From assembly GCF_003334305.1 (NCBI RefSeq), contig NZ_QOWS01000002.1: DNA of 64,000 nucleotides; one strand, written 5' to 3'. The translations under genes were made by a program, and so were the position numbers. This DNA is from Escherichia coli (lineage in GTDB: Bacteria; Pseudomonadota; Gammaproteobacteria; Enterobacterales; Enterobacteriaceae). Below the pieces are notes generated by a model. That model was not told the DNA's origin. It made no database searches and saw only the letters and a list, made by a program, of their open reading frames with translations. Every line of letters begins with the position of its first letter. The stretch's first letter is position 1. Positions 3,009-41,076 of this stretch are shown here, piece by piece.

Positions 3009-3626
3009 ATGGCACAGCTATATTTCTACTATTCCGCAATGAATGCGGGTAAGTCTACAGCATTGTTGCAATCTTCATACAATTACCAGGAACGCGGCAT
3101 GCGCACTGTCGTATATACGGCAGAAATTGATGATCGCTTTGGTGCCGGGAAAGTCAGTTCGCGTATAGGTTTGTCATCGCCTGCAAAATTATTTAACCAA
3201 AATTCATCATTATTTGATGAGATTCGTGCGGAACATGAACAGCAGGCAATTCATTGCGTACTGGTTGATGAATGCCAGTTTTTAACCAGACAACAAGTAT
3301 ATGAATTATCGGAGGTTGTCGATCAACTCGATATACCCGTACTTTGTTATGGTTTACGTACCGATTTTCGAGGTGAATTATTTATTGGCAGCCAATACTT
3401 ACTGGCATGGTCCGACAAACTGGTTGAATTAAAAACCATCTGTTTTTGTGGCCGTAAAGCAAGCATGGTGCTGCGTCTTGATCAAGCAGGCAGACCTTAT
3501 AACGAAGGTGAGCAGGTGGTAATTGGTGGTAATGAACGATACGTTTCTGTATGCCGTAAACACTATAAAGAGGCGTTACAAGTCGGCTCATTAACGGCTA
3601 TTCAGGAAAGGCATCGCCACGATTAA
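3009..3626 (+). CDS. tdk: Thymidine kinase
   Basis: 205 aa ORF with P-loop (NAGKST) and C-terminal zinc-binding Cys pairs; matches Tdk. Confidence 0.95.
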
Positions 3627-3640
3627 TAAGAATTTCTTTA

Positions 3641-3684
3641 CTGACAGGGTGAGCAGGGCACTTTTATCCTGTCAGTTCGTTTTA
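3641..3684 (+). terminator. Candidate terminator downstream of tdk
   Basis: 8 bp inverted repeat ctgacagg ... cctgtcag followed by ttcgtttta. Confidence 0.5.
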
Positions 3685-3875
3685 CGCACTTCTTCCGGGC
3701 TATATACCCTTCTCGGCAGTTTTTTAACGCCGCTATACGCCTCACAGGGCTCTTAAGCACCGACGTTGACTTGTGACCTGTAAAGTACAATATCCCTGTG
3801 TTTAGGCGTTATACATCGTCGCAAATATGATGAAGGCTAATGCTGTCGGTTTATGGAAAAGTTGCTTTGGGTAAA

Positions 3876-3902
3876 CAAAAAAACGGCCCCAGAAGGGGCC
3901 GT
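3876..3902 (-). terminator. Rho-independent terminator of adhE
   Basis: On the minus strand acggcccc-uucu-ggggccgu hairpin followed by a U7 run, immediately 3' of the adhE stop. Confidence 0.8.
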
Positions 3903-3927
3903 TTATATTGCCAGACAGCGCTACTGA

Positions 3928-6603
3928 TTAAGCGGATTTTTTCGCTTTTTTCTCAGCTTTAGCCGGAGCGGCTTCTTTTTTCGCTGCAGTTTCACCTTCT
4001 ACATAATCACGACCGTAGTAGGTATCCAGCAGGATCTGTTTCAGCTCGGAGATCAGCGGGTAACGCGGGTTAGCGCCGGTGCACTGGTCATCGAACGCAT
4101 CTTCAGACAGTTTATCCACGTTCGCCAGGAAGTCTGCTTCCTGAACGCCAGCTTCACGGATAGATTTCGGAATACCCAGTTCAGCTTTCAGCGTTTCCAG
4201 CCATGCCAGCAGTTTCTCGATCTTAGCAGCAGTACGGTCGCCCGGTGCGCTCAGACCCAGGTGGTCGGCAATTTCAGCATAACGACGGCGAGCCTGCGGA
4301 CGGTCATACTGGCTGAATGCAGTCTGCTTGGTCGGGTTGTCGTTCGCATTGTAGCGAATAACGTTACAAATCAGCAGGGCGTTTGCCAGACCGTGCGGAA
4401 TATGGAACTGGGAACCCAGTTTGTGCGCCATTGAGTGACATACACCCAGGAAGGCGTTCGCAAACGCGATACCCGCGATAGTCGCTGCACTGTGAACACG
4501 TTCACGCGCTACCGGATTTTTAGACCCTTCGTGGTAGGACGCTGGCAGATATTCTTTCAGCAGTTTCAGTGCCTGCAGAGCCTGACCATCAGAGAACTCA
4601 GATGCCAGTACAGAAACATAAGCTTCCATGGCGTGAGTTACTGCGTCCAGACCACCGAAAGCACACAGGGACTTCGGCATGTCCATAACCAGGTTGGCGT
4701 CGACAATCGCCATATCCGGAGTCAGCGCATAGTCTGCCAGCGGATATTTCTGACCAGTAGCGTCGTCAGTTACAACCGCAAACGGAGTGACTTCAGAACC
4801 TGTACCAGAAGTGGTGGTGACAGCGATCATTTTCGCTTTCACGCCCATTTTCGGGAACTTGTAGATACGTTTACGGATATCCATAAAGCGCAGCGCCAGC
4901 TCTTCGAAGTGAGTTTCCGGATGTTCGTACATAACCCACATGATCTTCGCGGCGTCCATCGGGGAACCACCACCCAGCGCGATAATCACGTCTGGTTTGA
5001 AGGAGTTTGCCAGTTCTGCACCTTTACGAACGATGCTCAGGGTCGGGTCCGCTTCTACTTCGAAGAAGACTTCAGTTTCAACGCCTGCTGCTTTCAGTAC
5101 GGAAGTGATCTGATCAGCATAACCATTGTTGAACAGGAAGCGGTCAGTCACGATGAGCGCACGTTTGTGGCCATCAGTAATCACTTCATCCAGCGCGATT
5201 GGCAGGGAGCCACGGCGGAAGTAGATAGATTTCGGAAGTTTGTGCCACAACATGTTTTCAGCTCGCTTAGCAACGGTTTTCTTGTTGATCAGGTGTTTCG
5301 GACCAACGTTTTCAGAGATGGAGTTACCACCCCAAGAACCACAACCCAGAGTCAGGGAAGGTGCGAGTTTGAAGTTATACAGGTCACCGATACCACCCTG
5401 AGACGCTGGGGTGTTAATCAGGATACGAGCCGTTTTCATTTTCTGACCGAAGTAAGAAACGCGAGCCGGTTGGTTATCCTGGTCAGTGTACAGGCAAGAG
5501 GTATGACCGATACCGCCCATAGCAACCAGTTTCTCTGCTTTTTCTACCGCGTCTTCGAAATCTTTAGCGCGGTACATTGCCAGAGTCGGGGACAGTTTTT
5601 CATGTGCGAACGGTTCGCTTTCATCAACAACGGTCACTTCACCGATCAGAATCTTGGTGTTTTCTGGTACAGAGAAGCCTGCCAGTTCAGCAATTTTATA
5701 GGCTGGCTGACCAACGATAGCCGCGTTCAGCGCACCGTTTTTCAGGATAACATCCTGAACAGCTTTCAGCTCTTTACCCTGCAACAGATAGCCGCCGTGG
5801 GTTGCAAAACGTTCACGTACAGCGTCATAAACAGAGTCAACAACAACAACAGACTGTTCAGAAGCACAGATTACGCCGTTGTCGAAGGTTTTGGACATCA
5901 GTACAGATGCAACTGCACGTTTGATATCAGCAGTTTCATCGATAACAACTGGAGTGTTGCCCGCGCCTACACCGATAGCTGGTTTACCGGAGCTGTATGC
6001 GGCTTTAACCATGCCCGGACCACCAGTCGCGAGGATCAGGTTGATGTCTGGGTGGTGCATCAGTGCGTTAGACAGTTCAACAGAAGGTTGATCGATCCAG
6101 CCGATCAGATCTTTCGGAGCACCGGCAGCGATAGCAGCCTGCAGAACGATATCAGCCGCTTTGTTGGTGGCATCTTTTGCACGCGGGTGCGGGGAGAAGA
6201 TAATGGCGTTACGGGTCTTCAGACTGATCAGCGATTTGAAGATAGCAGTTGAAGTCGGGTTAGTGGTCGGAACGATACCGCAAATAATACCGATTGGTTC
6301 AGCGATAGTGATGGTACCAAAAGTGTCGTCTTCAGACAGAACACCACAGGTTTTTTCATCTTTATAGGCGTTGTAGATATATTCAGAAGCAAAGTGGTTT
6401 TTGATCACTTTATCTTCGACGATACCCATGCCGGATTCGGCAACGGCCATTTTCGCGAGTGGGATTCGAGCATCTGCAGCAGCCAGAGCGGCGGCGCGGA
6501 AGATTTTGTCTACTTGCTCTTGAGTGAAACTGGCATATTCACGCTGGGCTTTTTTTACACGCTCTACGAGTGCGTTAAGTTCAGCGACATTAGTAACAGC
6601 CAT
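3928..6603 (-). CDS. adhE: Bifunctional aldehyde/alcohol dehydrogenase
   Basis: 891 aa [63 protein letters not shown]...; length and sequence match AdhE. Confidence 0.97.
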
Positions 6604-7727: not shown

Positions 7728-8464
7728 TTCCTTTCAAATGAAACGGAGCTGCCATGCTCCGTTTACTTCGTCATTATTTTTACTTTGTTCCCGCGCAGTT
7801 ATCAAAAGCAAAAGGAATAGGTAAAAATATTCTTCTCAAATTACAGTTAGTTATAAGGATTTCCTTAACTGCTTCTCCTCACCATCATGTTATTTTCGCC
7901 ACATCATAATCCTGGGCTTGCTGAAGAATAATTGAAATGATATTAGTAATTCCACTGCCTTTGGTAGAGGAAAGTGCTAAATAATAATCAATTGTTAAAT
8001 TATTGTGCATTTCACTACTGGAACTGTAATCAGAAAAGATAGACATGCTTAGCCAATCTCTATTTGATTGAATTGAAAGATGTTTGTTAAGGCATGGATG
8101 CAAGCTATAGATTCTGATACGGTCAATAAAAGAGAATTGCTTAACAATTTTGCAAAATGTATTGGCGAGTAAGAACCGCATTTGGTACTTTCCGGGCAAC
8201 CGCCAGACGATTATTTATTGGTAATGAGAATAATTAACAATTAAAGAGCGTCGCGAAAGAATAATGTGTCTCGACAGGGGAGACACAGTACGAATCGACA
8301 TAAGGTGATCGTCTGAATCACCAGAATAAATAAAGTCGGTGATAGTAATACGTAACGATAAAGTAACCTGACAGCAGAAAGTCTCCGAGCCTGTGCAGGG
8401 TCCCAATCCGGGATTACACATGCTGGTTAATACCAGTAATTATAATGAGGGAGTCCAAAAAACA

Positions 8465-20945: not shown

Positions 20946-21301
20946 GCACTCTCCTTGAGTTTTATGCAGGTGTTAATTAGCGGGCAATTGTACCCTGGTT
21001 AAGCCTCGGGTGGCAGCATCAGGTCTTGTATGGAAAAGCATATCTTTGTAAAGCGGAGGTAATTGCTGGCCTTCAGGCGTGGGCAAACCGCGGCAAGTGG
21101 CGAACGAGTTAATATTTGCGTAGCGAAAATATTTAAAAATTGATTTAAATCACGTTAACCAGGATTCTCAATGCAACTTCTAAATTAATCCAGATCAATA
21201 AATGGTGAATTATCATATGTAATGTGATCTATGTAGGATCATTTGTTACTCCAATGTAGGTATATTCGTCACGTTTTTATAACCATAACGACGGAGCGGA
21301 T

Positions 21302-30228: not shown

Positions 30229-30250
30229 TGTTATTCTCTAATTTTGTTCA

Positions 30251-30280
30251 AAAAAAAGCCCGCTCATTAGGCGGGCTGGG
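30251..30280 (-). promoter_or_regulatory. trp attenuator terminator (3:4 hairpin plus U-run)
   Basis: Plus strand aaaaaaagcccgctcattaggcgggct, i.e. on the transcript agcccgccuaaugagcgggcuuuuuuu, between trpL and trpE. Confidence 0.95.
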
Positions 30281-30319
30281 TATCTGATTGCTTTACGCAT
30301 GGTGAATACACTGCCCGTT

Positions 30320-30364
30320 TCAGGAAGTGCGCCACCAACCTTTCAGTACGAAAATTGCTTTCAT
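30320..30364 (-). CDS. trpL: trp operon leader peptide (14 aa, tandem Trp codons)
   Basis: Reverse complement reads atgaaagcaattttcgtactgaaaggttggtggcgcacttcctga = [14 protein letters not shown]. Confidence 0.95.
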
Positions 30365-40704: not shown

Positions 40705-41076
40705 TTATCATCATTCTTATTACCCATTTTTAATGAATTAAAGGGCTTTTAATACACCGCAGCAATAACAGCTTGAGTTATCTCAACACAAAATAATAAC
40801 CGTTAAGGGTGTAGCCTATGATCAACACAAATATGAAATATTGGTCCTGGATGGGCGCGTTTTCTCTGTCGATGCTCTTCTGGGCCGAACTCCTCTGGAT
40901 CATTACTCACTGATCCTTGACCCCGCTGCGGCGGGGTTGTCATTTGCTTTGCCACAAGGTTTCTCCTCTTTTATCAATTTGGGTTGTTATCAAATCGTTA
41001 CGCGATGTTTGTGTTATCTTTAATATTCACCCTGAAGAGAATCAGTGCTTCGCAACCCTGTCATTAAGGAGGAGCT

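Follow-up and report, generated by a model that had tools for sequence, protein, structure and literature searches.

An unoccupied IS4-family insertion site in the predicted adhE terminator hairpin of an Escherichia coli related to K-12

The tdk-adhE spacer and its predicted terminators

The window, meaning the whole stretch of 64,000 bases analysed in this study, carries two convergent genes, tdk and adhE. The thymidine kinase gene tdk encodes 205 aa (3009..3626, plus strand) and adhE encodes 891 aa (3928..6603, minus strand), as obtained from the ORF list and, for tdk, its translation. All 64,000 bases are identical to a segment of the complete genome of E. coli strain A7 (orangutan faeces, USA; NZ_CP028767.1, 2142024-2206023), in which the two products are annotated as WP_000068079.1 and WP_000301651.1. 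The ORF ends place a spacer of exactly 301 bp between the genes (3627-3927), in agreement with the RefSeq annotation of strain A7. A chance test is not applicable to this spacer, since its length is a measured distance. The gene content shared by the window and A7 begins with rssB, continues through galU, hns, tdk, adhE, opp, tonB, trp, topA, acnA and sap, and ends with puuP. The RefSeq annotation of A7 also places a truncated pseudogene of a YkgJ-family cysteine-cluster protein in the yciC/ompW gap (20973-21062, minus strand). Only two Rfam families reach the gathering score in the 64-kb window, the STnc180 sRNA (40745-40947, plus strand, 198 bits) and the trp operon leader (30250-30343, minus strand, 93 bits).

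A predicted intrinsic terminator follows each of the two genes. That of tdk, on the plus strand, consists of a stem-loop (3640-3676) and then UUCGUUUU, which extends to 3684, with an RNA fold of -20.8 kcal/mol (z = -2.35). It was partly picked up by the terminator scan and is conserved in the E. albertii-type locus. The predicted adhE terminator, on the minus strand, is a bidirectional-type hairpin (3877..3904) recovered by the terminator scan, as an inverted repeat and by folding. It is made up of a run of seven A (3877-3883), a stem arm (3884-3890, extendable to 3881), a loop of 4 nt (3891-3894) and a second arm (3895-3901, extendable to 3904), and forms a perfect 10-bp inverted repeat, AAACGGCCCC / GGGGCCGTTT (3881-3890 / 3895-3904). 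The terminator scan reports 10 pairs, of which seven are G-C, together with a minus-strand U-run. Because it lies ahead of the hairpin on the plus strand, the A-run appears on the adhE strand as a U-run behind the hairpin, where the sequence reads UUUUUUUGUUU. The fold is -23.6 kcal/mol with z = -4.27. Salmonella and the E. albertii-type locus share this architecture of stem and A-/T-run.

The adhE hairpin resembles the intrinsic bidirectional terminators that lie between convergent genes in its GC-rich perfect stem of 7-10 bp, its 4-nt loop, the U-run on the adhE strand and the short T-run on the other strand. It differs from them in that tdk has a separate terminator 200 bp upstream of the adhE hairpin, and for this reason the latter is probably used mainly in one direction. 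Genome contigs were further scanned with the pattern ACGGCCCC-N4-GGGGCCGTTT, aimed at the adhE terminator in other Escherichia species. The pattern occurs at no fewer than 120 places in many unrelated phyla and often matches both strands, and none of the loci fetched from the matches listed has adhE as a neighbour. It is a generic terminator-like palindrome, and the sequence of the adhE hairpin is therefore not locus-specific.

Between the two terminators lies a stretch of about 190 bp (3685..3876) with no Rfam family at the gathering score and with ORFs and repeats of chance size. In the alignment it is 100% identical to MG1655. The E. albertii-type locus preserves part of it, and no conservation can be recognised in Salmonella, where the spacer is shorter. 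The Rfam result and the chance-sized repeats speak against a hidden gene or RNA here, and this possibility was rejected. Two ORFs that enter the spacer (3638-3790, minus strand; 3840-3962, plus strand) were also rejected as genes, being short, overlapping the terminators or adhE, and unannotated in RefSeq. Within the whole spacer no Rfam family reaches the gathering score, and sub-threshold matches lie over the terminator only. BLAST of K-12 ISZ, IS4 and IS5U gave no match anywhere in the 64-kb window. Terminal inverted repeats of IS4 type and a degenerate transposase frame of the ISZ/insZ type are absent from the spacer and from the whole window. The preliminary description had given the spacer as about 300 bp, free of any IS-derived remnant and containing terminators only. 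The length and the lack of a remnant hold; as to the contents, both terminators were found, but some 190 bp between them are featureless.

The corresponding region of K-12 and of the nearest relatives

The annotation of K-12 MG1655 (NC_000913.3) has the mobile element ISZ between tdk and adhE (1294426-1295405), with insZ (b4573, formerly ychG) as its pseudogene, so the K-12 remnant of roughly 1 kb mentioned in the preliminary description is indeed there. The alignment with MG1655 gives a spacer of 1301 bp in that strain, not the 301 bp of the window. Genes, gene order and spacer sequence are otherwise alike, with a collinear flank on the adhE side. Between the tdk stop and the insertion point, the 271 bp agree fully save for a 1-nt indel in the A-run. 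The window matches MG1655 up to 3897 and the match resumes at 3888, which implies an ISZ of about 988-989 bp with a 10-11 bp duplication of CCCCAGAAGGG. The ends of ISZ are IS4-like, CAATGCCG...CGGCATTG, and the left boundary of ISZ in the K-12 record falls 9 bp inside the terminal inverted repeat that we place here. Both ISZ and the duplication thus sit within the adhE terminator hairpin of K-12 (window 3881-3904), and the window has neither.

Outside the insertion, the window and MG1655 differ by 13 mismatches and one indel in 6,012 aligned bases, and the flanks are 99.77% identical. A second K-12 insertion, IS5U (1299499-1300693, insH21) between ychE and oppA, is likewise missing from the window only 4 kb from the adhE site. 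It belongs to another IS family, makes a 4-bp duplication and lies outside any terminator. Its empty target is where two MG1655 alignments overlap by 4 bp (7977-7980). These four bases fall in an ORF (7885-8181, minus strand) annotated in strain A7 as a hypothetical protein of 98 aa, which is consequently interrupted in K-12.

Could the window derive from K-12 by deletion of ISZ, or be an assembly error that collapsed the ISZ copy? The high identity of the flanks and the near-identical left part of the spacer would fit this, but so many differences in 6 kb, the concurrent lack of IS5U upstream of oppA, the identity of all 64 kb to the complete genome of A7 and the occurrence of the identical empty junction in 2,200 complete genomes leave it a negligible probability. 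A K-12 with ISZ deleted was accordingly rejected. The substitutions, the lack of IS5U and the identity to A7 over 64 kb show that the window comes from a close relative of K-12 that is not K-12 itself, and the earlier suggestion of a non-K-12 lineage is borne out.

Eight other genomes among the matches listed are 100.0% identical to the window over 25 kb. Seven of these are empty at the adhE site, and one, TUM1887 (NZ_CP128963.1), has IS4 there. The IS4 of TUM1887 is 100% identical to the K-12 resident IS4 at insG and lies in a 25-kb background equal to the window, which suggests a recent gain. Strain C2 (NZ_CP010117.1) also has a full-length IS4 in the adhE terminator, in a background 100% identical to the window. 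The insertions of TUM1887 and C2 look very recent, and IS4 thus appears to be still active at this site.

Allele states of the site and origin of the empty state

The unoccupied IS4-family target in the window is CCCCAGAAGGGG (3887..3898), which is centred on the dyad of the hairpin. It is present in a single copy, and carriers have it duplicated over 10-12 bp around the inserted ISZ or IS4. Break points were aligned to the window for MG1655, BHUCD02, SCPM-O-B-12142, APEC E12053, 20AR0192 and TUM1887. In all but one of the other interrupted genomes sampled, the alignment resumes at window 3887/3888 (query 138/139); in the exceptional genome it resumes at 3895. The flanks of the window are collinear with those of occupied alleles, with 100% identity to BHUCD02 and 99.8% to MG1655, and retain no IS residue.

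States of the site were counted with junction-spanning queries of 301 bp against 5,424 complete E. coli genomes. The empty site was found in 2,200 genomes (40.6%) and the ISZ junction in 1,885 (34.8%). IS4 with its transposase on the adhE (minus) strand accounts for 1,130 genomes (20.8%), and IS4 in the opposite orientation for 190 (3.5%). About 19 of the 5,424 genomes fall outside the four states, and in a few sampled genomes the state is compound, through a rearrangement or an additional IS1 or IS200. About 59% of the complete genomes thus have an IS4-family element at the adhE site, and 41% are empty. The 301-bp spacer is thus an ordinary allele and the commonest single state of a polymorphism that is already annotated and known. 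The site is a recurrent IS4-family target across the population, hence the empty state says little more of a genome than that it does not carry ISZ or IS4.

The IS4 occupants are either full copies of 1426 bp or internally deleted copies of 1145 bp, the latter making up 13 of 16 IS4-occupied rows in an evenly spaced sample. In this sample, genomes with flanks at least 99.9% identical to the window are mostly empty. The band at 99.8%, which includes the sampled K-12 strains and O104:H4, is almost entirely ISZ. Genomes in the band of 99.3-99.6% (O157:H7 and others) are again mostly empty, and the band of 98.2-98.7% has mostly deleted IS4, with some empty sites and some full IS4.

Two outgroup loci, one per species, were traced from the Tdk protein cluster to their contigs by exact protein match. 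The E. albertii-type locus, whose Tdk variant is named E. albertii in NCBI, has a spacer of 323 bp, and the Salmonella enterica locus has one of 184 bp. Both have an uninterrupted terminator, with the A-run, hairpin and T-run intact at the homologous position just after adhE. The window has the target in single copy, and an insertion with duplication is by nature derived. Together with the uninterrupted outgroups, these sequences identify the uninterrupted tdk-adhE spacer as the ancestral state, as the preliminary description had supposed.

It does not follow that every empty genome has always been empty. ISZ or IS4 may once have entered the terminator in the lineage of the window and then been lost. 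The loss may have been a precise excision, through slippage or recombination across the 10-12 bp duplications, or an empty allele may have replaced the occupied one by homologous recombination. Either process would regenerate the exact sequence of the window without a scar, so that a never-occupied history is not provable from the sequence alone. Precise excision is rare for IS elements with short terminal repeats. Among flank haplotypes of at least 99% identity, empty alleles are interspersed with occupied ones, as would be expected under such a loss. Also in its favour is the ISZ carrier BHUCD02 (NZ_CM183444.1, 1292384-1297383), which matches the window at 100% in both flanks (2,098 and 1,914 bp), so that one local haplotype occurs in the empty as well as the ISZ state. 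The ISZ of BHUCD02 is 100% identical to that of K-12, and the adhE-side flank of K-12 differs at 11 sites in 3.6 kb, a pattern that suggests a mosaic formed by recombination around the insertion. However, BHUCD02 is absent from the best 25 matches listed over 25 kb (all at least 99.8%). The identity of its flanks is therefore probably local only, and BHUCD02 is more simply read as a recombinant. Also against a loss in the window lineage are the outgroups, which are empty, the seven of eight 25-kb-identical genomes that are empty among the matches listed, and the IS4 of TUM1887, whose identity to an active-type IS4 suggests gain over loss. We therefore regard a secondary restoration as improbable, and it is quite likely, judging from these sequences, that the lineage of the window was never occupied at the adhE site.

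Recurrent insertion into the adhE hairpin and its expected consequences

ISZ and IS4 share little besides their landing site. At the end adjoining the transposase start, 33 of 34 terminal bases are identical between the two (L002 3373-3406 for the ISZ end of MG1655, L003 5991-6025 for the IS4 end). Beyond these 34 bp they have no nucleotide similarity, and the transposase remnant of ISZ is about 31% identical to its IS4 counterpart; ISZ as a deleted form of IS4 was rejected on these grounds. The shared ends possibly reflect constraint on the transposase-binding end, an exchange of ends, or an ISZ that can be mobilised by the IS4 transposase. A second, more decayed ISZ-like remnant, in three pieces of about 82-94% identity, was observed in E. 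coli strain 350 (NZ_CP018243.1, locus L159 2524-3296). It adjoins nanM and a sialate O-acetylesterase gene at another chromosomal site, which indicates that ISZ was once multi-copy.

Since ISZ is unrelated to IS4, IS4 is found both ways round, and a K-12-identical IS4 occurs against a window-identical background, the same nucleotides have been used by at least three independent insertions, and probably by more. The opposite reading assumes no target preference and no hot spot: a single ancient insertion would have diverged where it stood and been spread by recombination. ISZ and the 1145-bp IS4 do each look like a single old event in one haplotype band. This reading is nonetheless very unlikely, given nucleotide similarity limited to 34 terminal bp between elements whose transposases are about 31% identical, the two orientations of IS4 at the adhE site, the IS4 of TUM1887 and the recurrence of the flank pattern at other IS4 sites.

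This flank pattern was derived from IS4 ends gathered from viral contigs and K-12, with targets reconstructed to give 21 flanks other than adhE. Duplications at the reconstructed targets are 12-14 bp; IS4 makes target duplications of 11-13 bp. A TTT starts 14-19 nt from the IS4 end in 13 of the 21 flanks, against a background of 10.9% at random window positions (p = 2.7e-8), and the frequency of T is 67-81% at positions 17-20. The first base is C in 17 of the 21. In most of the complete IS4 sites the opposite side has a mirror-image A-run, and several of the sites are plainly terminator hairpins. The site of the resident IS4 of K-12 is AAA-TAGGC-[ATCTTGGTTCTG]-GTG-TTT, and the adhE site is AAA-AACGG-[CCCCAGAAGGGG]-CCG-TTT. 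The geometry AAA-N5-[12 bp]-N3-TTT is thus common to the two. IS4 (1426 bp, transposase InsG) has the hairpin of the window as its exact insertion sequence in 1,320 genomes, with a duplication of 11-12 bp. The window holds the target only, without an element, and the T-run is not obligatory, being present in the 13 of 21 flanks.

The consensus target of IS4 is reportedly AAA-N20-TTT, said to go back to Mayaux et al. in 1984, and the rule drawn from the 21 sites agrees with it. No explicit IS4 target consensus was found in the text of 'IS4 family goes genomic'. AAA-N20-TTT occurs 58 times in the 64-kb window, and the motif alone is therefore insufficient to explain the hot spot. The GC-rich palindrome probably contributes to targeting as well. 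Taken at the level of sequence comparison, the predicted adhE terminator hairpin is a recurrent IS4-family target. A stronger version would make it a specific landing pad, recognised by its symmetry, for transposases of the IS4 group, whose elements would home to bidirectional terminators, built of A-run, palindrome and T-run, just downstream of highly expressed genes. ISZ and IS4, with transposases about 31% identical, and IS4 in both directions all cut at the same dyad-centred nucleotides, which is the basis of this proposal; we hold it tentatively and think it rather doubtful. If true, insertion just past highly expressed genes would likely do little harm. The decayed ISZ, with a left inverted repeat matching that of IS4 at 33 of 34 bp, might moreover be mobilisable in trans by the IS4 transposase, and such mobilisation could explain an ISZ in flanks identical to those of the empty allele.

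We propose the following account of the locus. The genes tdk and adhE converge, and each is followed by its own predicted intrinsic terminator. The 301-bp spacer is the empty and ancestral allele at a site polymorphic for insertion, where staggered cuts centred on the dyad of the adhE hairpin lead to insertion of an IS4-family element with 10-12 bp of CCCCAGAAGGGG duplicated. Repeated use of the site probably reflects a preference of IS4 for a duplicated core of about 12 bp set between an A-run and a T-run some 20 bp apart. Three kinds of occupant are observed: ISZ/insZ, a decayed IS4-family element of about 988 bp on the K-12 haplotype; IS4 of 1426 or 1145 bp; and IS4 reversed. The lineage of the window, identical to strain A7, keeps the hairpin intact and was most probably never hit.

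Under this account, adhE transcripts of the window lineage are expected to end at a strong predicted terminator. In carriers the stem is split, and from the folding, transcription would be expected to run on into the IS. The fold z-score at the 3' end of adhE is -4.3 in the window, -0.9 in K-12 and -1.7 in an IS4 carrier, so that the structure predicted there is no longer significant in the two carriers. ISZ and IS4 in its commoner orientation have their transposase frame on the adhE strand just downstream of adhE, so that read-through from adhE would enter the transposase in the sense direction. In K-12, tdk, insZ and adhE are together among the neighbouring genes up with PhoB activity in a microarray study, which is silent on read-through (PMC3465305).

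For the window itself these results are of little import, as it is a non-K-12 E. coli with the commonest allele of a well-annotated polymorphism. The only mildly interesting aspect is the adhE terminator hairpin as a recurrent landing site of IS4-family elements, with 59% of genomes occupied. The four allele classes (empty, ISZ, and IS4 in either orientation) could serve as a cheap, PCR-sized lineage marker, and the recurrent use of one terminator hairpin offers a clean natural data set on target choice by IS4. K-12 has the derived state, with its adhE terminator split by ISZ, and conclusions drawn from K-12 on the 3' end of adhE or on regulation in the tdk-adhE intergenic region need not apply to the 41% of genomes in which the terminator is intact.
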